64,000 bases of DNA from Patescibacteria group bacterium. GTDB taxonomy: Bacteria > Patescibacteriota > UBA1384 > XYA2-FULL-43-10. Shown here one piece after another: positions 4,918-46,295 of the stretch (positions within the stretch are counted from its first letter, which is position 1; each line of letters starts with the position of its first letter). The stretch covers positions 10,599 through 74,598 of the forward strand of contig JBAYVT010000004.1 in assembly GCA_041674405.1 (NCBI GenBank). Reading direction: 5' to 3'. The notes under the pieces were generated by a model. It was not told the DNA's origin and made no database searches. It saw only the letters and a list, made by a program, of their open reading frames with translations. The position numbers and the translations under genes are program-made.

Positions 4918-5619
4918 CTATCCGCGCGTATACACTTCTGCGTGGTTTGATACCCCAAAAGACTTTCCGAGATATTCGTTTAGGGCAAGCATCGCTTCAT
5001 CGTATTTTTTGACTCTAAGCTGGCTTTTGTGAGAGCGCGCAGCCTCTTTTTTTATTTCGATATACTGGTCTATTGGAAAAATAATATTGGGCTTGCCAAT
5101 TCCCCACACACTGTAATACCACACTTCCGGCTTTTCCTTAAGCTTGGAATAAGCGGTAAAAAAATGTTTATGGATCACCACGTGATCCGGGTGCCAATCT
5201 GATTTATCCGGCACCAAAATTAAATCAATTGGGCGGGTTGCAATTTCCTCAAGTATCCGAACCCAAAGATCAGAATTTGCCGGGGAATCATCTTTAAGCC
5301 GAAGAAAGTTTACTTCGGAGTGCCCGAGCACCCGCACCGCTGAAACGGCTTCTTTTTCGCGGGCATCAATCAATGATTCATCTCGCGAGCCAATCTTGTT
5401 TCCTTTTGCGCCATCAAAAAAATAGAGGGTTTTAATTTTCGCCCCACCCTGTATTAGGTGTGCAAGCAACCCTCCGCAGCTAAAAACATCATCATCGGGA
5501 TGAGGAGAGAGCACAAGAACATGGCCTGCTATCACATGGTCAACTACTTTTGCAGAAAGCCATGACCTCGCAGCAGAATGAACTAGGTCTTCTTCTTTTT
5601 TATGGTGAACATGAAACAT
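4918..5619 (-). CDS. PIG-L/LmbE family N-acetylglucosaminyl deacetylase
   Basis: Carries the LVLSPHPDDDVFSCGG metal-binding motif (the HPDD signature of the LmbE/PIG-L family) and is 233 aa long. Confidence 0.8.
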   Translation of the reverse strand: MFHVHHKKEEDLVHSAARSWLSAKVVDHVIAGHVLVLSPHPDDDVFSCGGLLAHLIQGGAKIKTLYFFDGAKGNKIGSRDESLIDAREKEAVSAVRVLGHSEVNFLRLKDDSPANSDLWVRILEEIATRPIDLILVPDKSDWHPDHVVIHKHFFTAYSKLKEKPEVWYYSVWGIGKPNIIFPIDQYIEIKKEAARSHKSQLRVKKYDEAMLALNEYLGKSFGVSNHAEVYTRG

Positions 5620-8995: not shown

Positions 8996-9364
8996 TCACC
9001 CCTCCACCGCCGAGATCAGATGCTCAATATGGGGCGGCTCAACACTTTTGTCAACTCCGATCACGTCTATCCTGATTGTGCGGCTCGGATACTTCTGCTC
9101 GAGGATTCCGGCCAAATTCCGTAGTTTTTCCTGCTTCGCACGCCTCACCAGGTCTTTAGCCGGACCATATCCTTCCCCCTTCACCGTCTTCACTTCTACA
9201 AGAACAACAACTCCGCCGGCTGGCGGATCGAACGCCAATATATCGATTTCTCCGATCGAAAGTTCAATATTCCTGCCCAATATTTTGTATCCAATAGATT
9301 CCAGATAATCACACGCCGACTGCTCCCCTTCATCCCCGGTTTGTCTTTTCTTCGATTTACTCAT
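8996..9364 (-). CDS. YraN/UPF0102 family endonuclease (start likely the internal Met MSKSKK at 9364)
   Basis: GEIDILAF...VVVLVEVKT core typical of the YraN family. Starting at the internal Met removes a 56-bp overlap with the upstream regulator gene. Confidence 0.7.
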   Translation of the reverse strand: MSKSKKRQTGDEGEQSACDYLESIGYKILGRNIELSIGEIDILAFDPPAGGVVVLVEVKTVKGEGYGPAKDLVRRAKQEKLRNLAGILEQKYPSRTIRIDVIGVDKSVEPPHIEHLISAVEG

Positions 9365-10115
9365 ATTTATCTTTCGCAGCTTCCCACAATAGCTCAAATT
9401 TTTGCCTTTCAATTTGCGCGATTGCCGGATTCTCGATCACCGTCGCGAATGGCTCCTTTTCCGAGTGAGCAATGAATACTACTTTATTCGGATAGATCTG
9501 CGTCTCTACGGCCGGATTAAATTGATCTTTCGGCAAGAATCGAGTTCTTCTCATCTCCGCCCGATCATTTCCCAAAGATTTATAATTTTGCTTATCGTCC
9601 GGAAATATCATGCGCAATGAAATTTTTTTCTTAACCCTTTCGGTTACAAAAGCGTCGTTTTCTTCTGGGTTTTGATACCAAAAACCGGGATTTGCTAACA
9701 CCAACCTTTCCCCGCCCTCAGGCCCTTGAAGTCCCTGATAATATACCTGTCTTACACCCTCTAATCCTTCATACAATGAAATGATCGGTTTAGATGGCGA
9801 TTTGCTAGTTAATGCATCAAAAAGGGGCAGAGAATCTCGAAATTGATTTTTCTTCTGTTCTAAGGCGGTTACCAAATTTTCTGGGCTGACTACCGAATAC
9901 ATGGTGTGTGTTAGTTCTGCTGTTCTTGACCCGATTCCCTTATCGATGAATCTGTCAAAAATTTGATAGCATGTTGTGCGTTTGATACAAGATTTACGAT
10001 ATATATTCCACATCGAAGATGGCCCAATCTCACAAGAGGCAAGATACACTCGTGCCTCATTTTCTTCAAATCCAAGTAGTTTTAGTTTTTTTACTAAATT
10101 CCAGTCTGTCGTCAT
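9357..10115 (-). CDS. TrmB-like HTH transcriptional regulator
   Basis: N-terminal LGFEENEARVYLASCEIGPSS winged-helix pattern like TrmB-family regulators. A paralog sits at 35711..36469. Confidence 0.6.
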   Translation of the reverse strand: MTTDWNLVKKLKLLGFEENEARVYLASCEIGPSSMWNIYRKSCIKRTTCYQIFDRFIDKGIGSRTAELTHTMYSVVSPENLVTALEQKKNQFRDSLPLFDALTSKSPSKPIISLYEGLEGVRQVYYQGLQGPEGGERLVLANPGFWYQNPEENDAFVTERVKKKISLRMIFPDDKQNYKSLGNDRAEMRRTRFLPKDQFNPAVETQIYPNKVVFIAHSEKEPFATVIENPAIAQIERQKFELLWEAAKDKYE

Positions 10116-10280
10116 GTTTTATGACATTGTACCAGCAGAATAAATTTTAATCAAATATGATTCTAAATTCGGGATGTCAAAAAATAATAAATCCCAATAT
10201 ATGTCGTTAATGTTGACAATCAATTATGCTGCTGCTAATTTCTCGACGCGAACCAAGACTGAATCGGGAGGTTGACCAAC

Positions 10281-10766
10281 ATGTCCGACCGTAATCTTCT
10301 ATGTGCCCGAGAGATTCTTGAGAAGATCTATCTTTCACGGTATATCTTTCTCTCTGGTCTTTCAGGGTACGACACCGAAGCACAATCCGCCATTGGCACC
10401 TTCGTGGTGCCTACATCCGAGCAACTTCGCTACACAGCCGAACAACTCGGCTATGTCTCCGCCACCGAGCGCCACTCGTGCGTCAATCAGCTCGCATATT
10501 CACTCACTGCTCTGCTTGTCCGCGATCATGCCGGGCAATTCGCGTGTTACGATCTCGAGTCATTTCGAGACCTCTCCTCTGGCTTCCAGATGTGGAATAC
10601 CAAGGAGCACTTCGAGCACAAGAAAGTGCTTCCCCGAGACACGGAGTTCGAGATTAGCATGCACGTGACGCGATCTCGAATCAGCCCTCACGGGCTGAGC
10701 GTCGTCGAAGTGGAACTCAACAGGGGCGTCGATGGTTATGTCCATTTCGCCGTACAGGTAGATTAG
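10281..10766 (+). CDS. Hypothetical protein encoded in a GC-rich (about 57%) island
   Basis: The ORF is 10272..10766, but GGGAGG lies 6 nt before the ATG at 10281 (MSDRNLL...). A near-consensus promoter, TTGACA-17-TAATTT, sits at about 10208-10236. The coding GC is far above its flanks. No recognised domain. Confidence 0.5.
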   Translation: MSDRNLLCAREILEKIYLSRYIFLSGLSGYDTEAQSAIGTFVVPTSEQLRYTAEQLGYVSATERHSCVNQLAYSLTALLVRDHAGQFACYDLESFRDLSSGFQMWNTKEHFEHKKVLPRDTEFEISMHVTRSRISPHGLSVVEVELNRGVDGYVHFAVQVD

Positions 10767-10780
10767 GAGGTGAGATCAGA

Positions 10781-10812
10781 AAAACGAGCCTTTAGGGGCT
10801 CGTTTTTCATAT
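10781..10812. terminator. Bidirectional rho-independent terminator between convergent genes
   Basis: Near-perfect hairpin AAAAACGAGCC-TTTAGGG-GCTCGTTTTT, with an A-run on one side and a T-run on the other. Confidence 0.8.
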
Positions 10813-10832
10813 TTAGATCACATTATTTCAAT

Positions 10833-11444
10833 TTACTCAGCTTTGGTCTCTTCGTCTTCGGCTTCGTCAGCCTTTTCCTCTGTGGGTTCGGCAGCACGCT
10901 CGTCTGTGTTTGATCCGGCTTCGACTTCCTCGGCTTCACCATCAGCTTTTCCGCTTCTGGCTGCTAGGGCGCTTTCCGCCTTCTTTGCTAGCTCGGCGTC
11001 TTTCTCCGCTTTCTTCGCAGCATCGGCTTCGGCTTGTTTGGCTTTTTCCGCCTCAATTTTGGCTAGCTCTTCCTCGGCTTCTTTCTCTTCCCACATCTTG
11101 TACTCGCGGCTTTGTTCTTTCAGGCGGGCATTCTTGCCGGTAAGCTCGCGCATGAAGTAAAGCTTGGCACGACGAACCTTCGAGTGTTTGATTCGCTCTA
11201 TCTTGATGATTCTTGGCGAATGAAGCGGGAAAACTCGCTCAACACCGATACCAAAAGACTCCTTGCGGACTGTGAAGGTGCCATCAAGGCCTTTTCCGTG
11301 CTTCACTGCAATAACAAGGCCCTCAAAGATCTGGACACGCTCTTTGGCGCCTTCTTTGACCTTGAGGTGTACTCGAATCGTGTCACCAGAGACAATGTCC
11401 GGAACATTTTTTTTCATCAATTTTTTCTCGATTGTGGTTTGCAT
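10833..11444 (-). CDS. rplS: Ribosomal protein L19 with a roughly 100-aa Lys/Glu/Ala-rich C-terminal extension
   Basis: Core [32 protein letters not shown]...[24 protein letters not shown] matches L19. The start was taken at the internal Met (MQTTIEKK). The tail is a [13 protein letters not shown]-type low-complexity region. Confidence 0.85.
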
Positions 11445-11685
11445 TTTACAATTCCGATCTAATTCAGACTTCTGCACTCAAGATTTTGAATTCAGGAGTC
11501 CGCTCTCCTCCCGCCAGTGACGGGAGGAGAGCCGGAGAGGGCGACGAGCCCGGTGGACCTTCGTCCAAACGAGCAAGTCGTGATGCTCCACTCTACCCTG
11601 CAGGAGTCGAGTGGCTTGCTGCACGAGGACAGCGCGCTGACACTAGCCCCTCGTGCAACGAGATGGAGTCTCTCGTGCGAGCGTG

Positions 11686-12030
11686 TTACCTCACCGTCGC
11701 CGAAAACTGGCTCCTCGCTAGGGGCGAGGACTCGAAGTGATAGACGAGGGCCTGCGCCCATCCCGGATCTACGGGAACCCTCGGGCTTAGCAGGATCTCC
11801 GGGGTGCTGATGAGCCGAGGCCCATCTGCCGCGACAATGTGTACTCCTTCGCCAGGCATACGGTAGACAAGCAAGTTCCCGCCCTCGGACCAGGCATAGC
11901 CGCACAGCCCCCTGACGACACTCTGGAGGGTGTGCTGCCCGAGCTTGACCAGCTCACGGACGAGGTCTTCGTACCCCGAACGCATGAGCTGTATCCACTT
12001 TGCCCTACGATTCGAACTTCTCTTAGCCAT
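11686..12030 (-). CDS. Hypothetical protein in a GC-rich (about 60%) island
   Basis: GAGGAGG lies 8 nt upstream of the ATG (ttgaGGAGGaagcacgATG). The 114-aa protein is rich in Arg/Leu/Val and has no recognised motif. A 75-aa ORF at 12023..12250 (-) directly upstream may be a second island gene. Confidence 0.45.
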   Translation of the reverse strand: MAKRSSNRRAKWIQLMRSGYEDLVRELVKLGQHTLQSVVRGLCGYAWSEGGNLLVYRMPGEGVHIVAADGPRLISTPEILLSPRVPVDPGWAQALVYHFESSPLARSQFSATVR

Positions 12031-12316
12031 CGTGCTTCCTCCTCAATGCGGAATTGGCACTAGGCATCCTGCTGTCAGGTTTATTTGGCGCATGAAGTCC
12101 AGCGCCTCCTCTCGTGTGTGATTGACCCTCTAAAGGGCCTTGCTGCGTTTCTGAAACAACCCCACTCGCACAGAAAGTTCTGCAACCACCTCCCTTGAAC
12201 ACTATGAGATTTTCGGCAGGCAGGATTCCCCGATCTATGCCTACCGACAACCATTGCTAAATTGCTGTATTGTTAAATTGCTACCAAAACAATTTAACAG
12301 TTTAACAATGTAACAA

Positions 12317-12601
12317 TTATTTTTTATCTGCCTCTACAGACACAAAAGTTCTTTTGTCTTTATTGCTGTTGAAAGCAACTACTCTTTTCTCTTGAAATTT
12401 GACCATGCCGTCTTTCAGCGCATAAAGCGTATCGTCGCAGCCAATTCCGACATTTGCTCCGGCATGAAATTTGGAACCGCGCTGGCGGACGATTATGCCT
12501 CCGGCAAGGATTTTCTGGTCACCAAAAACTTTGACGCCAAGTCTTTGCGCTCGTGAATCCCGTCCCAGTCTTGTACTACCAGCAGCCTTCTTATGTGCCA
12601 T
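12317..12601 (-). CDS. rpmA: Ribosomal protein L27
   Basis: [29 protein letters not shown]...[17 protein letters not shown] matches L27. The start was taken at MAHKK. Confidence 0.9.
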
Positions 12602-12683
12602 ATCAATTCCTTCGGAATAATGACTAAATCCAAATGTCAAATTTCAAATTTGGGAATTAAACCATTTTGTTTGTCATTTGAAA

Positions 12684-13988
12684 TTAGGATTTAGGTGCTT
12701 GTAAAAAGAGAATTTCTCTTTTTACAACCTGATAATCCCGCCCGTAAACTAAAGGCGGACGAAGTAGAGTATAACCCATTTTTTCGATCTCGTCAACACT
12801 CGCAGCGAAAAGGCTGATCTGTCCGCCATCTGATGATTCGACGAGGGGAAAGACGAGGCAAACAGCTGACAGCTGACAGCTGCTAGCTCGCAGTAAACTA
12901 GCCAAGTTTTTAAGAAAACCCAGATATATTCCTTCTAGCTTCTTAAATTCGCCAAGAACAGCATTTTTCGAGGGCTTAAATTTTTTTGGTTCACCGAGAT
13001 ACGGCTCGGCGACGATGATTACATCGCGAGTCGAAAGTTCCAAGTCCAAAGTCGAAAGCGGGGCAAGAAAATCATGCTTGGTTGCGTCAGCTTGAAAGAT
13101 TGAAAATGTTTTGCCTGTCATTGCGAGCCCGGAGGGCGCGGCAATCTTTTTAATAGATTGCTTCGTCATTTCATTCCTCGCAATGACCCATTCTATGTTT
13201 AGTTTCGTATCCATCACAGCTTTTTCCGAAATATCCGAAGCAATAATATCGTGCCCAAGCATGAGAGCTTCTATGGGAATATTGCCCGATCCGCAGAATG
13301 GATCGACGACAATAGATTTATCATTTGATTCGCCAATACTTAGATTCACCATCATTCGAGCTAGCTTCGGCGGCAACATTCCGGAATATTTATCTCCGGC
13401 TGGCTTGCCATAATCACGCTTCGACCACTCGAACGGATTCGATATTGCAATCAATCGACCCAAATACTCGTCAAAGACACCTACTTCGACTCCCTTGCCA
13501 TCTAGCTTGTTGGTTTGTGAAACAATTGTTGAGAGCTCCTGCCCCTCCTTAATCGCTACGAATCGAGACTTAATTTGAGGCTTAAGGGCAGTCTTAACTT
13601 CAATTCCAAGCTTGTTGATATTCAAAGTTCGTTTTGAAAAATTTGAGATTCCAAAGTCAATTTTCGAACCATTTTCACTTTTTTCAGCGATCACCATATC
13701 AATGATCTCTTTTTTAAGATCAGGACTTGCCTTTTTGTACAGTTCAAATATCTTTGTCGTTCCGCCCAGGCTGCTTATCAAGCTGTCAGCTGTCATCTGC
13801 AAGCTACCAGCTTCTTCAAACTTGATGATAGCGATATTGTCGGATACACTTGAAATGCAAAAACCAAAACCAAAGCGTCCTAAAACCGCCTTTACTTCAA
13901 GGAGGGCTAGCTCGGATTCTCTACCGAGTACGAAGGCGAATGTATTTTTGTTGTGATCTGTGTCCATAAATTCATCTAAATCTATCAC
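12684..13988 (-). CDS. Putative RNA (guanine-N2/adenine-N6) methyltransferase of the UPF0020/RlmL-Trm11 type
   Basis: Motif I VVDPFCGSGNIPIEALMLG (DPxCGSG) and a downstream IIASDIS motif II-like region; 434 aa with a probable THUMP-like N-terminal region. Confidence 0.6.
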   Translation of the reverse strand: MIDLDEFMDTDHNKNTFAFVLGRESELALLEVKAVLGRFGFGFCISSVSDNIAIIKFEEAGSLQMTADSLISSLGGTTKIFELYKKASPDLKKEIIDMVIAEKSENGSKIDFGISNFSKRTLNINKLGIEVKTALKPQIKSRFVAIKEGQELSTIVSQTNKLDGKGVEVGVFDEYLGRLIAISNPFEWSKRDYGKPAGDKYSGMLPPKLARMMVNLSIGESNDKSIVVDPFCGSGNIPIEALMLGHDIIASDISEKAVMDTKLNIEWVIARNEMTKQSIKKIAAPSGLAMTGKTFSIFQADATKHDFLAPLSTLDLELSTRDVIIVAEPYLGEPKKFKPSKNAVLGEFKKLEGIYLGFLKNLASLLRASSCQLSAVCLVFPLVESSDGGQISLFAASVDEIEKMGYTLLRPPLVYGRDYQVVKREILFLQAPKS

Positions 13989-33866: not shown

Positions 33867-33956
33867 GGTGAGGTGCTAGAGTGGTTGAATAGGCCGGTCT
33901 CGAAAACCGGTATGCCCGCAAGGGTATCGTGGGTTCAAATCCCACCCTCACCGCCA
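33867..33956 (+). tRNA. tRNA-Ser (anticodon CGA), class II with a long variable arm and encoded CCA
   Basis: Acceptor GGTGAGG/CCTCACC, anticodon stem CCGGT/ACCGG with loop CTCGAAA, T-arm GTGGG-TTCAAAT-CCCAC. Confidence 0.85.
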
Positions 33957-34045
33957 TCCCACGTTGCCCGATTTATCGGGCTATGCGGGATGAAGAACAG
34001 AATTTGAACGGGAAGGGGTCGGGAAACGGGAGTTTCCCGCTTCGG
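33957..34045 (+). repeat. Conserved element directly 3' of tRNA-Ser(CGA); homologous to 22028..22129
   Basis: TCCCACGTTGCCCGATTTATCGGGCTATGCGGG...AACGGGAAGGGGTCGGGAAACGGGAGTTTCCCG. The first 32 nt are nearly identical to the element after tRNA-Ser(TGA). Confidence 0.6.
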
Positions 34046-34108: not shown

Positions 34109-34129
34109 AAATCCCACCCTCACCGCCAT
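34109..34129 (+). repeat. Perfect 21-nt duplicate of the 3' end of tRNA-Ser(CGA) (T-loop through CCA)
   Basis: AAATCCCACCCTCACCGCCAT occurs at 33937..33957 inside the tRNA and again here, 150 bp downstream, at the edge of a GC-rich island. Confidence 0.7.
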
Positions 34130-34199: not shown

Positions 34200-34919
34200 C
34201 TATTTCACCGCGCAGATTATGTCGTAGTTGGGCTCTGCCGCAAGGTTTGGTCTCAAGACTCTCTTCACCCCTAGCCCCCGAACAAGCCCTTCCATTTCGT
34301 TTGGCGCAAGCAAATACGAAAGTGAGCGGTTCTGGAACTGCTGCCCGCGAACGATACCCTTCCCCTCTATCACCCGCGTTCGCCGAAACCAATCGTGGGT
34401 GATGTCAACCGCCATGCTGTAGCCGAGGAAGGAAAGGTTCAGGTGACCACCACCCTGATCAATCTCGTGCTGTGAGATCGTGTCGAGGTAGAGAAGTCCG
34501 CCGCTTTTTAAGGCAGCGAGCATTTCTTTTAGGCTTCTTCCGATCTCCATGCGACACCGACCAGGATCGAAGATATCGCCCTTCCCCCAGCCCCCCACGT
34601 TTGTTAAGCTGTTACCTCTGCATATCACAGCGTCGAAAGTCCTGGCCAGCTCGCGAGCCTTCCGCCAATCCAGTTTGCGAAACTCAATCGCCGGATGGCT
34701 GTGGCGAGCAGTGGCGATGTCGATCATCTCTTCGTCCGCATCGATCCCGACCCCTGTAAAGCCGCGCTCTGCTAAACCGTGCAGCACATGCCCACCGCCG
34801 CATCCACACTCGATGATTGTTCTGACGCCGAGTTCCCGCAGTAAATCCGCTAGTTCTTTGATGAACTCCGAGCCATACATCAGCTCGGACAAGATTACCC
34901 ACTGCTGTGACAGAGTCAC
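34200..34919 (-). CDS. Class I SAM-dependent methyltransferase in a GC-rich (about 57%) island
   Basis: Motif I IIECGCGGGHVLHGLAE and motif II GVGIDADEEM. A terminator hairpin lies downstream, and the gene overlaps the upstream gene by 4 bp. Confidence 0.75.
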   Translation of the reverse strand: MTLSQQWVILSELMYGSEFIKELADLLRELGVRTIIECGCGGGHVLHGLAERGFTGVGIDADEEMIDIATARHSHPAIEFRKLDWRKARELARTFDAVICRGNSLTNVGGWGKGDIFDPGRCRMEIGRSLKEMLAALKSGGLLYLDTISQHEIDQGGGHLNLSFLGYSMAVDITHDWFRRTRVIEGKGIVRGQQFQNRSLSYLLAPNEMEGLVRGLGVKRVLRPNLAAEPNYDIICAVK

Positions 34920-35560
34920 GTGCCTTCAACCTCCTTCATCATGATCACTCGCAGGCCTCCTGTTGCTGCGTCCTCCGGAATAAAATCCGGAGCTATCCAG
35001 AGAAACTTACCCCCAAGCCGGTAGTAGAAGGCCAAGAGCGGGTCGAGGCAAAGTTCGCGATCAGTAGGAAAGGGCCCTCCCGCGAGATGTCGATCTATCG
35101 CCTCCTTGAACGCGGGCCTTTGTCTAATCCCTTCTCTTGGGCTTCCATTGTAGGAGGCCGGCCTCCCGTCAGCTATTCCAAGGATGCAACCATCCGACTT
35201 AATTCGACCAAGCATAGCTTGCGCCAGTAATACTGCTGTGCGGGCATTGCGATACTTATCCTGCACGTTGAGGTTGTAGACGAAGGCACAATCATGGCTG
35301 GTCTCCATCGGCATCGTCGAGAACTCCCCAAAGTTTCTGGAAAATGCTTTGGGATCACTCGGATAAAACCGGGAGTAGGAAAAGCAGATTTTCCCAACCA
35401 GCTCCCCGTCCAGTCTGGCCCCAAGCATGATGTGTCCAAGGCGCAGCCGCTGCTCGATCAGCTCACGGCTGGCGCGCAGATAGGGCGGGAACGACAGGTT
35501 CTCGTCTTCGAGGATTTCGTCCAAATCCTCGAAAGACAACTCGACTATCATCGTGTCCAT
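34916..35560 (-). CDS. Putative GNAT-like acyltransferase in the GC-rich island (start at MDTM, with AGGAGG 7 nt upstream)
   Basis: GC-rich coding begins at the internal Met; upstream of it, the 45 codons of the longer ORF are AT-rich and unlikely to be coding. AFVYNLNVQDKYRNARTAVLLAQAM resembles a GNAT motif A region. Confidence 0.45.
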   Translation of the reverse strand: MDTMIVELSFEDLDEILEDENLSFPPYLRASRELIEQRLRLGHIMLGARLDGELVGKICFSYSRFYPSDPKAFSRNFGEFSTMPMETSHDCAFVYNLNVQDKYRNARTAVLLAQAMLGRIKSDGCILGIADGRPASYNGSPREGIRQRPAFKEAIDRHLAGGPFPTDRELCLDPLLAFYYRLGGKFLWIAPDFIPEDAATGGLRVIMMKEVEGT

Positions 35561-35710
35561 AATGTCTCGCCTCCTTTGGATTCTTCGAAACAAAAAATTA
35601 TCCCTCCGTCTTGGCAGGATGTCAATAATTTGCACAGGGATTTTGTTAGTGATATCCTTTAATCGAGATTGTTTTATTAAAATGTTGTCAAAGTTTTTCA
35701 CAAATAAGTT

Positions 35711-36469
35711 ATGAACTTACAGGCAATTTTAGAGGAATTCGGGCTTTCCAAACGCCAGGCCAGCGTCTATCTGGCAAATTTGGAGTTGGGAGAGGCGAGT
35801 GTTGCTCAAATTGCCGAAAAAGCTCAAATCGAGCGTACTGGCACCTACTACGTTATAGAATCGCTGTGCGGCAAAGGCCTTATCGTCGAGATTGAGCGAG
35901 GCAAAAAAGATTTTTTTGTCGCCATCGAGCCAAAAGAGCTGCTATCAATTGCAAAAAGAAGAGAAAAGTTGATATTAGAACACCTGCAGGAATTTGAGGC
36001 CTTTTCGAATATCTCCTCGGAGAAACCTCATGTCCGCCTTTACACCGGAATCAACGGAATAAAAACGGTTTTTTTAAAAACAATTGAGAAACCAAAAATA
36101 CAGATGCTGGGCTTTTCACCCTACAGAACAGCCGAGAAAACCGCCTGGTACAACGGCAAAGAGTATGTGGAATGGGGTTTGGACTATATCAGGAAACGAG
36201 CCTCCAGAAGGATTTTCGCTCGCACCATCGCTGAAGATACACCGGAATCACAAGCGCGCAAGGGGAGAGACGCTGAAGAACTGCGGGAAACACGTCTGGT
36301 TCCACACGATAAATTCCTGTTCACCAACGAAATAGCCATCCTCGACGATTGGGTCGCGGTAATTTCATACAAAGAGATGGCTGCGCTTGTAATTGAATCA
36401 AAAGAATTTACTAAAACAATGAGATCAATTTTTGAACTAGCATGGGATGGAGCGGAAAAATATTTGTAG
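35711..36469 (+). CDS. TrmB-like HTH transcriptional regulator (paralog of 9357..10115)
   Basis: EEFGLSKRQASVYLANLELGEASVAQIAEKAQIERTGTYYVIESL at the N-terminus, and about 252 aa like its paralog. Confidence 0.6.
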   Translation: MNLQAILEEFGLSKRQASVYLANLELGEASVAQIAEKAQIERTGTYYVIESLCGKGLIVEIERGKKDFFVAIEPKELLSIAKRREKLILEHLQEFEAFSNISSEKPHVRLYTGINGIKTVFLKTIEKPKIQMLGFSPYRTAEKTAWYNGKEYVEWGLDYIRKRASRRIFARTIAEDTPESQARKGRDAEELRETRLVPHDKFLFTNEIAILDDWVAVISYKEMAALVIESKEFTKTMRSIFELAWDGAEKYL

Positions 36470-38543: not shown

Positions 38544-38681
38544 TAAGTTCCTTATTGTTACATTGCTAAATGGTTAAATTGTTATTTTTCAAGTTTGTCA
38601 TTTGTATATTTTATCAAGTAATTTATTGATCGCGGAAGCTTTTGTAAGTGCTCCAAAAATAAAACAATTTAACAATGCGGG

Positions 38682-39253: not shown

Positions 39254-39355
39254 GAGCCGATTTTAGCACAAATATGAGCTTAATACGAATAAACACAGAG
39301 ACAGCCACCTCGATGCGAGATGGCTGCCCTGAAAGTCCCTCCAGGTTGTTGGTCG

Positions 39356-39868
39356 CTAGAAGCGGCCGATGTTGTACTGGGCGCAGACGCTGTCGTCCTG
39401 CCCATCCACGCAGAGCCGGTATAGCCCTGATGCGCGGCCGGACTTCCAACAGAACTGGATGGTCTGGTAGGGCTTGCACCCCGCCTGGTATTTCACATAC
39501 CCCATCGCATCCAGGCCCCTCACGATCTTGACCGGCGGCGTCGTAACGTCCGCCCGCCACGGGTCGTATCCCCACACACGAAGACACGAATTCCAGGGGT
39601 TGACCTCGGCGCCGAGCCTCAGCCGCTCATTGTCCGTCCTGGCAAGCCAGAGGACATCGGCCGGCTTGTACCCTGCCATCAGCAGAGTGTAGGGCCCGTC
39701 CACCTGCTGTTCGGCGTAGAACCACGCCGAACCGCGAGCAACGGTCACGGTTGCAGCCGTGTACTCGCCTTGGACGAACACACCCGGAGACACCGACACC
39801 TCGTCCGCGAAAGCGACCGAGACGGACAAAGCCAACATTGCGATCAGAACAGCGGTAATAGCGCGCAT
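39356..39868 (-). CDS. Secreted Cys-containing hypothetical protein encoded by a GC-rich (about 62%) single-gene insert between rnpA and rpmH
   Basis: Signal peptide MRAITAVLIAMLALSVSVAFA. AGGAGG lies 7 nt before the ATG, with a TTGACA-15-TATATA promoter upstream and a GC hairpin terminator downstream. Confidence 0.55.
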   Translation of the reverse strand: MRAITAVLIAMLALSVSVAFADEVSVSPGVFVQGEYTAATVTVARGSAWFYAEQQVDGPYTLLMAGYKPADVLWLARTDNERLRLGAEVNPWNSCLRVWGYDPWRADVTTPPVKIVRGLDAMGYVKYQAGCKPYQTIQFCWKSGRASGLYRLCVDGQDDSVCAQYNIGRF

Positions 39869-40048
39869 GTTTGCGCCTCCTGTACCCGAAATTGTACGCC
39901 TGATACCGACAATTCAATATATACTATTTCTCATCAATTGTCAATCTTCTCGAGCACAAAAAAAGAACCCGTGGGGCTCCCAAATACATGATTAAATGGT
40001 TATATTATTATTCTCAACAATTTAGCAATACAGCAATTTAGCAATTTA

Positions 40049-45374: not shown

Positions 45375-46295
45375 ATGCGTCTGTCCACGATAATTGGGTT
45401 AGCTATGATGTTGGTGTCGGGGGCGTTCGCGGGAGAGATCGCAGTCTGCCCGCAGCCTACCCCTCAGAGACTGGCGATCGCGCCGGTCTCTGCCTCGTCC
45501 CTTGGCCAGTTCGAGTGGTGGGTGGACGAAGAGGAGGCGGCCGGCCTGGTCGAGGAGCGAGCCTATGAGGTCGCTCCCTGCATTCTGGCCGCCTACAACA
45601 TGGAGCTGGTAGAGCGGAAGATGCTCGGGATCGCAGAGGCCGAGCAGGCCTTGGCAGAGGATCCGTACATGGACCCCACTACCTTCGAGCAGCCTGGCCA
45701 GGGCGTCGGCGCCAACTGGCTCCTGGTGGTTACGGTCACCAGGATGAGCGTGGAGGATAAGTCCGTGGACGTTGAGATCCGCGGCAACTCCTATCACGCT
45801 GAGAAGTCCATGATAACGGTCTGGCTGCAGGCGCGGATCGTCAATGTGGGGACGAAAGTCGTGTCACCCGCGCTATCGATTCGCAAGAACTGCACGATCA
45901 CGACTGACCAGCAGCTCAGCCTGCAGAGCGGCGAGTGGGATCTGGGCGGTGATCAGCGGACGGACATCGTGACCGATGCCGTCTATAAGATCACCGACTC
46001 TGGTCTTGCCGAGCTCTTGGGGCAGCTGCTGCCCAAGCTTGGCATCAGGACTGGGGCGCAAGCCGGATTCCGGTACGACCCGCAGACGGGCGAACGCATT
46101 TCGGTGATTGAGCAGACATACATCTGCCCGAACCCGAGATGCAACCGGATCTCGCCGAAAGGAGCGAACTTTTGCCCCTACTGCGGCGCCAGGTTGGACC
46201 GGCCCTGCGAACCCGCACCGGCAATCGAAAGGGCGCGGCCCTGTGAGCCGCCACCAGCCGCTAACCGCGACAAGGTGAACCACGCCGGCGGATAG
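45375..46295 (+). CDS. Secreted protein with a C-terminal zinc ribbon, encoded in a GC-rich (about 60%) island
   Basis: Signal peptide MRLSTIIGLAMMLVSGAFAG. C-terminal CPNPRCNRISPKGANFCPYCGARL Cys4 ribbon. A GC-rich hairpin terminator at 46321-46357. Confidence 0.55.
   Translation: MRLSTIIGLAMMLVSGAFAGEIAVCPQPTPQRLAIAPVSASSLGQFEWWVDEEEAAGLVEERAYEVAPCILAAYNMELVERKMLGIAEAEQALAEDPYMDPTTFEQPGQGVGANWLLVVTVTRMSVEDKSVDVEIRGNSYHAEKSMITVWLQARIVNVGTKVVSPALSIRKNCTITTDQQLSLQSGEWDLGGDQRTDIVTDAVYKITDSGLAELLGQLLPKLGIRTGAQAGFRYDPQTGERISVIEQTYICPNPRCNRISPKGANFCPYCGARLDRPCEPAPAIERARPCEPPPAANRDKVNHAGG

Follow-up and report, generated by a model that had tools for sequence, protein, structure and literature searches.

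The ribosomal protein genes rpmA (L27) and rplS (L19) are separated by a block rich in guanine plus cytosine (GC) in the genome of a Patescibacteria group bacterium (contig JBAYVT010000004.1, of which a stretch of 64,000 nt was analysed; hereafter the window). This block, island 2 (11445-12316, minus strand), is best read as a clade-specific module of small genes and a cis-acting RNA leader that lies upstream of rplS and splits the rpmA-rplS pair, a reading to which we assign a probability of roughly 55%. About a quarter of the block, at 11462-11689, is a conserved structured RNA that is undescribed in Rfam and is not coding, and island 2 itself is an old, clade-wide insertion into an ancestrally coupled gene pair. 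A second block on the other side of rplS, island 1 (10281-10766), is a separate one-off accessory gene that is unique to this genome and encodes a protein of putative hotdog fold. The initial annotation had taken these and other blocks of the window for patchy foreign insertions; they are indeed discrete and carry real genes, but island 2 is not a recent patch of DNA from a GC-rich donor.

Patescibacteria have tiny genomes and unusual ribosomes, and to our knowledge almost no regulation has been characterised in them. Many ribosomal-protein operons are autoregulated via structured leaders, and a covarying RNA upstream of rplS for which Rfam holds no model would add a class of ribosomal-protein leader for this phylum. 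Its junction with an ORF (open reading frame) that is predicted to be translated offers a concrete candidate for a switch that can be tested. The region is most informative for this conserved module of small ORFs and structured RNA, which is absent from current RNA and protein libraries.

The structured RNA upstream of rplS

The RNA runs on the minus strand from the stop codon of orf114, a gene for a 114-aa protein, to about 17-20 nt before the ATG of rplS (11444). It comprises ca. 225 nt and five hairpins, namely P1 (11617-11660), P2 (11591-11612), the variable P3 (11530-11590), P4 (11505-11529) and P5 (11464-11502). The minimum free energy of folding of 11445-11690 has a z-score of -5.1, and that of its counterpart in the relative L085 one of -7.7 (L-numbers denote loci or contigs of relatives, including those found through L19); 0 of 200 dinucleotide shuffles fold as well, and no excess folding was found in the coding part of orf114. 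A covariance model, R1, built from six sequences (the window, L085, L118, L119, L121 and L124) scores 156.5 bits in the window and 165-196 bits in L085, L118, L119, L120, L121 and L124, of which L120 is a match outside the training set (165 bits). These six further RNA-bearing contigs represent five other genomes, and in all of them, as in the window, the RNA is located directly upstream of rplS. Marginal matches (E 0.18-0.35) appeared in L005, L006 and L122, and nothing else among the 48 sources searched.

A MAFFT alignment of the six RNAs has 90.6% of its cells paired, and compensatory changes, on both sides of the pair, are found in 21 of 48 pairs, to be compared with 8.7 +/- 2.1 pairs in shuffles (none of 500 reaching 21) and 3-5 pairs when the partners were slid. 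The antisense strand pairs in 84.6% of the cells, the higher figure of the sense strand being due to 29 G-U cells. No Rfam family was matched in the islands when the whole window was searched at gathering thresholds or 10100-12400 at E<=5, nor in four relatives at E<=0.1, and ARAGORN detected no tRNA or tmRNA in the islands or the relatives. Coding in the RNA region was considered and rejected, given that the open frames are not the same from genome to genome and that changes in the stems are compensatory. The idea of one RNA common to all island-bearing relatives was also rejected, since L005, L006, L012 and L014 share only a P5-like hairpin, P5 being the only part that is recognisable in them.

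Between the orf114 stop and P1 there is a 9-nt segment (CUCGCACGA, 11673-11681, minus strand), starting 4 nt after the stop, which nearly repeats the sequence of the P1 5' strand and can replace that strand in pairing with the P1 3' strand (11621-11628). This alternative helix is 90.7% paired and shows compensatory changes in 4 of its 9 pairs, a number reached by 5 of 500 shuffles, the slid controls giving 0-1. Each of the six genomes has the stop codon of an upstream ORF 0-5 nt ahead of the segment, and in L118 the junction is kept though the upstream ORF, of 116 aa, is unrelated to orf114. Mutually exclusive helices, one of them covered by a terminating ribosome, are the classic logic of translation-sensitive leaders, and the stop-adjacent alternative helix suggests that rplS has a leader of this kind.

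The module is arranged, on the minus strand, as an AT-rich inverted repeat and a conserved hairpin, short ORFs, orf114, the five-hairpin RNA and rplS. The RNA would act in cis as the rplS leader, in which the 9-nt segment and the P1 5' strand would compete for the same P1 3' strand. By covering the 9-nt segment, a ribosome that terminates at the end of the upstream ORF would fix one of the two folds, and rplS expression would in this way be tied to the translation of the cassette ahead of it; the RNA may also be bound by L19 or by the small basic proteins. The most far-reaching version of this proposal is an undescribed class of Patescibacteria RNA, a translation-sensing rplS leader read by ribosomes that terminate on a small-gene cassette whose products may bind RNA or the ribosome. 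We regard this version as tentative and, on balance, doubtful; if true, control of a core ribosomal-protein operon would have been reorganised in a lineage of ultra-small bacteria, with a new module of RNA and proteins at its centre.

The small genes of island 2 and the age of the insertion

orf114 (11686-12030, minus strand) is a genuine coding gene that evolves far faster than its ribosomal-protein neighbours. Its GC contents at the three codon positions (GC1/2/3) are 0.62/0.48/0.73, and a Shine-Dalgarno site, GAGGAGG (12038-12044, minus strand), is located 7 nt ahead of its ATG and is overlapped by the stop codon of a 16-codon ORF. An exhaustive HMMER search against 1.84 billion representatives rendered one real relative, P0003, a protein also of 114 aa (E 1.4e-14) that aligns without gaps at 37% identity and whose gene in L085, another Patescibacteria contig, is again found between rpmA and rplS. 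Nucleotide identity between the two genes by codon position is 0.54/0.63/0.36, a pattern typical of purifying selection at the protein level; GC3 is high in both (0.73 in the window, 0.67 in L085). The 114-aa ORF with its GAGGAGG site, as initially annotated, is thus borne out by a coding GC pattern and a syntenic homolog. An ORF of 95 aa at the same place in L119 is, by profile comparison, a probable further member of the family (hhalign probability 69%, E 4e-5), and one in L121 is a weak candidate. The N-terminus of the orf114 product is basic, and no match was found in Pfam, NCBIfam, PHROG, PADLOC or the sequences of the PDB. An AlphaFold2 (AF2) model from the two-sequence alignment had a predicted local distance difference test (pLDDT) score of 48, too poor for a fold search. 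Metagenomes were also scanned, with no confirmed locus for peptide patterns of the orf114 family and with 31 matches to the DNA motif CATAGATNGGGGAATNCTG, all due to chance and inside unrelated genes.

Upstream of orf114, the 16-codon ORF (MRQINLTAGCLVPIPH; 12043-12093, minus strand), whose translation is predicted, starts inside a hairpin, GGCGC...AUGCGCC (12087-12106). The motif GGAGGCGC..AUGCGCC is kept in L085, L121 and L124, and the main ORF of L121 begins with it. A 34-codon ORF (12081-12185, minus strand), with the Shine-Dalgarno site AAGGGAGG and a TTG start, occupies the position of the zinc-ribbon and Arg-rich mini-ORFs of the relatives and is probably a decayed remnant of these; a covarying hairpin with the motif CAAUCACA lies within its region (12117-12139, minus strand). 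Mini-ORFs with long Shine-Dalgarno sites are present in L085, L119, L121, L122, L123 and L124 (sites at 1225-1434 in L085, 753-830 in L119 and 3291-3404 in L121). Some encode a zinc-ribbon peptide of 25-35 aa with the pattern CxxC...CxxC (MPYVCTTCG...CPHCSG in L085, others in L119, L122, L123 and L124), and some an Arg-rich peptide of 33-37 aa (RGRGPNRxCT in L085 and L121, with the variant RGRTRACT in L124); against Pfam they gave only sub-threshold zinc-ribbon matches. A possible 75-aa ORF at 12023-12250, also proposed initially, has to be abandoned, its GC1/2/3 of 0.57/0.54/0.46 being non-coding and the frame not being conserved in the relatives.

At the 5' end of the island a hairpin with a GGGGAAUCC loop (12215-12245, minus strand) is conserved, its stem showing compensatory changes in L085, L119, L121 and L124. 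Over the 111 nt around it the window and L085 have 83% identity, as against 0.33-0.47 at four-fold sites of the backbone genes, which are near saturation, so that this noncoding stretch is far better conserved than neutral sites; the folding z-score of 12167-12316 is -5.3. Directly after the rpmA stop there is an AT-rich inverted repeat of octamer units (12251-12316), common to L085 and L005. Such octamer inverted repeats (TTGTTAAA / TTTAGCAA) are also found in intergenic regions at 38555-38675 and 40017-40045 of the window and in L005, L006, L007, L011 and L085, often directly after ribosomal-protein genes, and they could possibly be a terminator, an operator or a repeat element. An integron attC site was rejected on reading the sequence: there is no integrase, the order of the core-like motifs is wrong, and the repeats occur at island-free sites.

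The gene order dnaE / methyltransferase / rpmA / rplS / ... / yraN / gltX is kept among the relatives, and the contig of the window, 158 kb of a metagenome-assembled genome (NCBI locus tags WC080_03025 and WC080_03035), has a gene order identical to that of an independent Logan assembly. The gap between rpmA and rplS is 20-58 nt, or a TAATG overlap, in L007-L011 and L013, and an AT-rich spacer of 130 nt in L125. The slot is filled with 720-1530 nt in L005, L006, L012, L014, L085, L119 and L121-L124, the GC content of the filling DNA being 0.55-0.70 by windows, compared with 0.41-0.50 in the backbones. Since the slot is filled across the clade and the genes abut in the more distant relatives, the insertion must be old and clade-wide. 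Comparison of its interior between sub-lineages by blastn and tblastx showed no relation, and the architecture of the insertion is kept within the sub-lineage of the window. Protein identity between the window and L085 is 90% for L27, 75% for L19, 77% for YraN and 78% for GltX. rpmA (12317-12601, minus strand; PF01016) is 92% identical to the L085 copy in a tblastn segment. rplS (10833-11444, minus strand; PF01245, E 1.5e-42) encodes an L19 with a clade-specific C-terminal tail, an extension of ca. 85 aa rich in Glu, Lys and Ala (10833-11090, minus strand) whose sequence has an AT skew of -0.53 and internal direct repeats.

Other kinds of slot content were observed in the relatives. L006 (5200-5979), L014 (5264-5982) and L012 (4911-6000) hold a different GC-rich, ORF-poor segment with the covarying hairpin CCGGnnnnnnCGCGAAAGCCnnnnnnCCGG; in L006 and L012 the sense strand of this segment folds beyond shuffles along its length (z -2.6 to -4.6), no Rfam family matches it, and it may be another unnamed large RNA. 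The hairpin repeats GTCATTCCCG...CGGGAATC and GGATCCCCGA...TCGGGGAT, which in some relatives are placed after the RNA and before rplS or at the start of the island (L121 3925-3990, L124 ~1080-1170, L012 ~5050-5085), resemble small dispersed palindromic repeats.

Composition was followed in sliding 100-nt windows, the mean GC of the whole 64 kb being 0.442. Island 2 has sharp edges at both borders, with values of 0.33 at 11400, 0.60-0.66 at 11500-11900, 0.50-0.54 at 12000-12150 and 0.28 at 12250. At island 1 the values are 0.29-0.31 (10100-10200), 0.53-0.58 (10350-10700) and 0.39 (10750), and the step is less distinct because the adjoining rplS itself reaches 0.50-0.57. Three further islands (34200-35560, 39356-39868 and 45375-46295) are likewise GC-rich. 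The discrete blocks described before thus appear in the profile, and the GC and GC3 values bear out those located elsewhere in the window. GC3 is 0.59-0.80 in the island ORFs and 0.31-0.55 in the backbone genes, and the log-likelihood of island versus backbone codon usage is positive in all six GC-rich ORFs and negative in 37 of 37 backbone genes. A match of at least 6 nt to AAGGAGGTG is found upstream of five of the six GC-rich ORFs but seldom upstream of the 42 backbone genes, and in many of the latter no Shine-Dalgarno site can be recognised. The codon signature is therefore island-like throughout, as the initial annotation had suspected, but the span of GC3 does not indicate the single donor lineage that it was thought to reveal. 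The high GC content of island 2 is made up of RNA helices and GC3-rich small genes, persists clade-wide and is not a sign of recent import; for the RNA part it is accounted for by helix stability. Short GC-rich patches in these genomes can hence mark selected RNA and long-resident small genes instead of recent imports, which makes them relevant to automated calls of islands and horizontal gene transfer (HGT), and it is a compositional puzzle that resident genes of a low-GC genome should keep so high a GC3.

Island 1 and other GC-rich blocks

Island 1 consists of a gene for a 161-aa protein (10281-10766, plus strand, stop codon 10764-10766) with coding-type GC1/2/3 of 0.60/0.38/0.61. The signals initially ascribed to it are present: a promoter-like TTGACA-17-TAATTT (10213-10241, plus strand; hexamers at 10213-10218 and 10236-10241) and the Shine-Dalgarno site GGGAGG (10266-10271, plus strand) 9 nt ahead of the ATG at 10281. 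The automatic promoter scan did not list the former, because its -10 hexamer matches only three of six consensus positions, and the site lies within an AT-rich divergent region (GC 0.29-0.31) common to this gene and trmB, a gene for a TrmB-family regulator (9357-10115) arranged head-to-head with it. The perfect bidirectional terminator claimed for its end is also there, at 10779-10808, between the convergent stops at 10766 and 10833, and would serve both the 161-aa gene and rplS. It has a perfect 12-bp stem (GAAAAACGAGCC/GGCTCGTTTTTC), a 6-nt loop, and flanking runs of A upstream and of T downstream; our terminator scan missed it because the T run belongs to the stem.

The 161-aa product matches Pfam FcoT (PF10862, hotdog thioesterases) with an E of 2.2e-5 and 24.5 bits, under the gathering cut-off of 27 bits, residues 32-139 aligning to positions 27-129 of the 156 of the profile and the size of the protein fitting roughly; a precomputed collection annotation gives the same family, graded 'faint'. 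The statement that neither product has a recognisable domain is thus valid for orf114, which has no family match, and has to be qualified for this protein. Among 5.8 billion proteins its sole match is itself. No homolog of the 161-aa protein was found in plasmid records, no sequence match in the PDB below E 0.5, and its gene is absent at every related locus fetched. A single-sequence AF2 model had a pLDDT of 44, too poor for a fold search. Compared with the FcoT-like type III thioesterases (PF10862; Rv0098 of Mycobacterium tuberculosis), the protein is alike in profile coverage and rough size and differs in its sub-threshold score, the lack of database homologs and the lack of a confident structure model, so that the assignment is only a lead. 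The slot downstream of rplS contains different GC-rich genes in each relative, and island 1 could be a lineage-specific acquisition.

A head-to-head arrangement of TrmB genes with GC-rich genes was observed in four places: the two in the window (9357-10115 with 10281-10766, and 35711-36469 with 34916-35701), L005 (9086-11635) and L014 (9013-11127). The partners are the FcoT-like ORF, a GNAT-like/methyltransferase pair and, adjoining trmB in both L005 and L014, a GC-rich radical-SAM gene, which suggests that these pairs are regulator-plus-cargo modules.

The window contains other features of this kind. The 3' end of the tRNA-Ser(cga) gene (33867-33956) is repeated exactly and directly over 21 nt (33937-33957 and 34109-34129) beside the GC-rich block 34200-35701, which includes the methyltransferase and the GNAT-like gene; the repeat resembles the scar of an attachment (att) site left by an integrative element, and no integrase was seen. 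Between rpmH and rnpA, which are usually adjacent, there is a 170-aa ORF (39356-39868, minus strand) with a GC3 of 0.80, an N-terminus like a signal peptide and no family match; it has its own TTGACA-17-TATATT promoter and is preceded by a terminator made of a stem plus T7 (region 39270-40048). The segment 1600-2300 has a GC content of 0.54-0.56, a GC skew of -0.41 and Pro/Ala-rich open frames on the plus strand.

Alternative explanations and known systems

It could be thought, as the initial annotation did, that both blocks were recently transferred and are unameliorated DNA of a GC-rich donor in a low-GC genome. The high GC3, the common codon signature, the long Shine-Dalgarno sites unlike those of most backbone genes and the ORFan status of the island ORFs fit this idea, as do the emptiness of the rpmA-rplS site in more distant relatives, the att-like tRNA-Ser repeat beside another island and the restriction of island 1 to this genome. 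We consider it unlikely. Transfer without amelioration does not explain island 2, because orf114 is GC3-rich in two genomes near saturation at neutral sites, and the island is syntenic and GC-rich in each member of the clade; moreover, the covariation of the RNA implies long-term selection in place. Searches of 5.8 billion and of 1.84 billion proteins yielded no donor-like homolog of island 2, all homologs coming from the syntenic clade, and island sequences were matched in none of the collections of viral contigs, phage records and plasmid records. An integrase or flanking direct repeats were found at neither of the islands, and the GC3 span makes one donor unlikely. Somewhat less probable still is a trans-acting module, a small ribonucleoprotein or ribosome-associated particle in which a stand-alone non-coding RNA would be bound by the zinc-ribbon, Arg-rich and 114-aa proteins, the position being a matter of co-expression. 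Basic and zinc-ribbon mini-ORFs with strong Shine-Dalgarno sites do recur in the relatives, the orf114 N-terminus is basic, the RNA is large and multi-domain for a ribosomal-protein leader, and its variable distance to the rplS start speaks against direct masking of that start. Such a particle is difficult to reconcile, however, with mini-ORFs that are degenerate in the window, with proteins evolving faster than the ribosomal ones (37% identity versus 75-90% for L19 and L27), with the lack of any promoter or terminator found to delimit a separate RNA, and with an RNA that is always directly upstream of rplS.

That the block is what is left of a selfish or mobile element, or a hot-spot cassette of the defence or toxin-antitoxin kind, with the hairpins as end remnants like attC or like miniature inverted-repeat transposable elements and the ORFs as cargo, is improbable in our opinion. 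It would take its support from the hypervariable slot with content unrelated between sub-lineages, the fast-evolving ORFs and the AT-rich imperfect inverted repeat that lies at one border and recurs elsewhere in the genome, but the octamer repeats are also found at island-free intergenic sites, the order of the parts and the junction of stop codon and RNA are conserved, target-site duplications are lacking, none of the genes nearby is for an integrase, a transposase or a relaxase, and PADLOC and PHROG gave no match. An artefact of assembly or binning, by which foreign GC-rich reads would have been joined into a Patescibacteria contig, is scarcely credible: the only evidence in its favour is that the genome is metagenome-assembled, and against it stand the same structure from two different assemblers, low-GC genes on both sides of the islands within one 158-kb contig, and homologous islands at the same site in independent samples.

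The small-gene and leader module that we prefer has difficulties of its own. There are only six or seven examples of the RNA, two of them near-identical, and its structure was derived from the alignment on which it was then scored. The terminator scan of 9900-12800 gave no terminator-like site, and neither P4 nor P5 has a U run after it; thus neither an intrinsic terminator nor any obvious way for the RNA to sequester the rplS start was found that could define the output of the switch, and the distance from P5 to that start varies from ~10 to ~115 nt. The coding-type substitutions of orf114 imply more than a passive 'leader peptide', and the lasting GC3 richness of the island 2 genes is not accounted for. 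The ends of the transcripts, the use of the promoters, the translation of the short ORFs, the regulatory mechanism and every protein and RNA function are predictions. For island 1, the FcoT assignment is below the Pfam threshold, and the AF2 models of the 161-aa protein and of the orf114 product were unable to test the folds.

Among the closest known systems is an L19 leader that consists, in Firmicutes and Fusobacteria, of one small bulged hairpin (RF00556; Yao et al. 2007, PMC1913097); regulation of ribosomal-protein leaders through alternative pairings has been put forward (PMC1913097). As with RF00556, a conserved RNA structure immediately precedes rplS here, in a transcription unit set apart from the gene before it, and P5, a bulged hairpin near the rplS start, is its most leader-like element. 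On the other hand, the RNA described here has ca. 225 nt and five hairpins, is not matched by the RF00556 covariance model at the gathering score or at E<=5, nor in four relatives at E<=0.1, and is preceded by ORFs, predicted to be translated, whose stop abuts the switch segment; it belongs to Patescibacteria, in which autoregulation by L19 is putative. It shares with the leader-peptide attenuators (trp, his, pheST) an upstream ORF that ends beside mutually exclusive helices. That ORF has here 67-116 codons and is selected at the protein level, instead of being a peptide of 14-30 codons rich in a single residue; no terminator hairpin with a U run follows, and the competing segments pair as 1:3 versus 2:3, not as 1:2/2:3/3:4.

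Compositionally atypical HGT islands are known in Patescibacteria (PMC12455944), and the blocks of the window are like them in their deviant GC and codon usage, in their ORFans, in their location between conserved genes and, in one case, in lying next to a tRNA gene with a duplicated 3' end. Islands 1 and 2 show the deviant composition expected of horizontally acquired islands, and donor homologs, mobility genes and att sites were found for neither; island 1 is absent from the same site in every related locus, and the slot of island 2 is empty only in more distant relatives. The islands of the window differ from those reported in being of 0.5-1.5 kb and without mobility genes, and island 2 differs further in that its position and architecture are conserved in the clade and that it consists in part of selected RNA structure.

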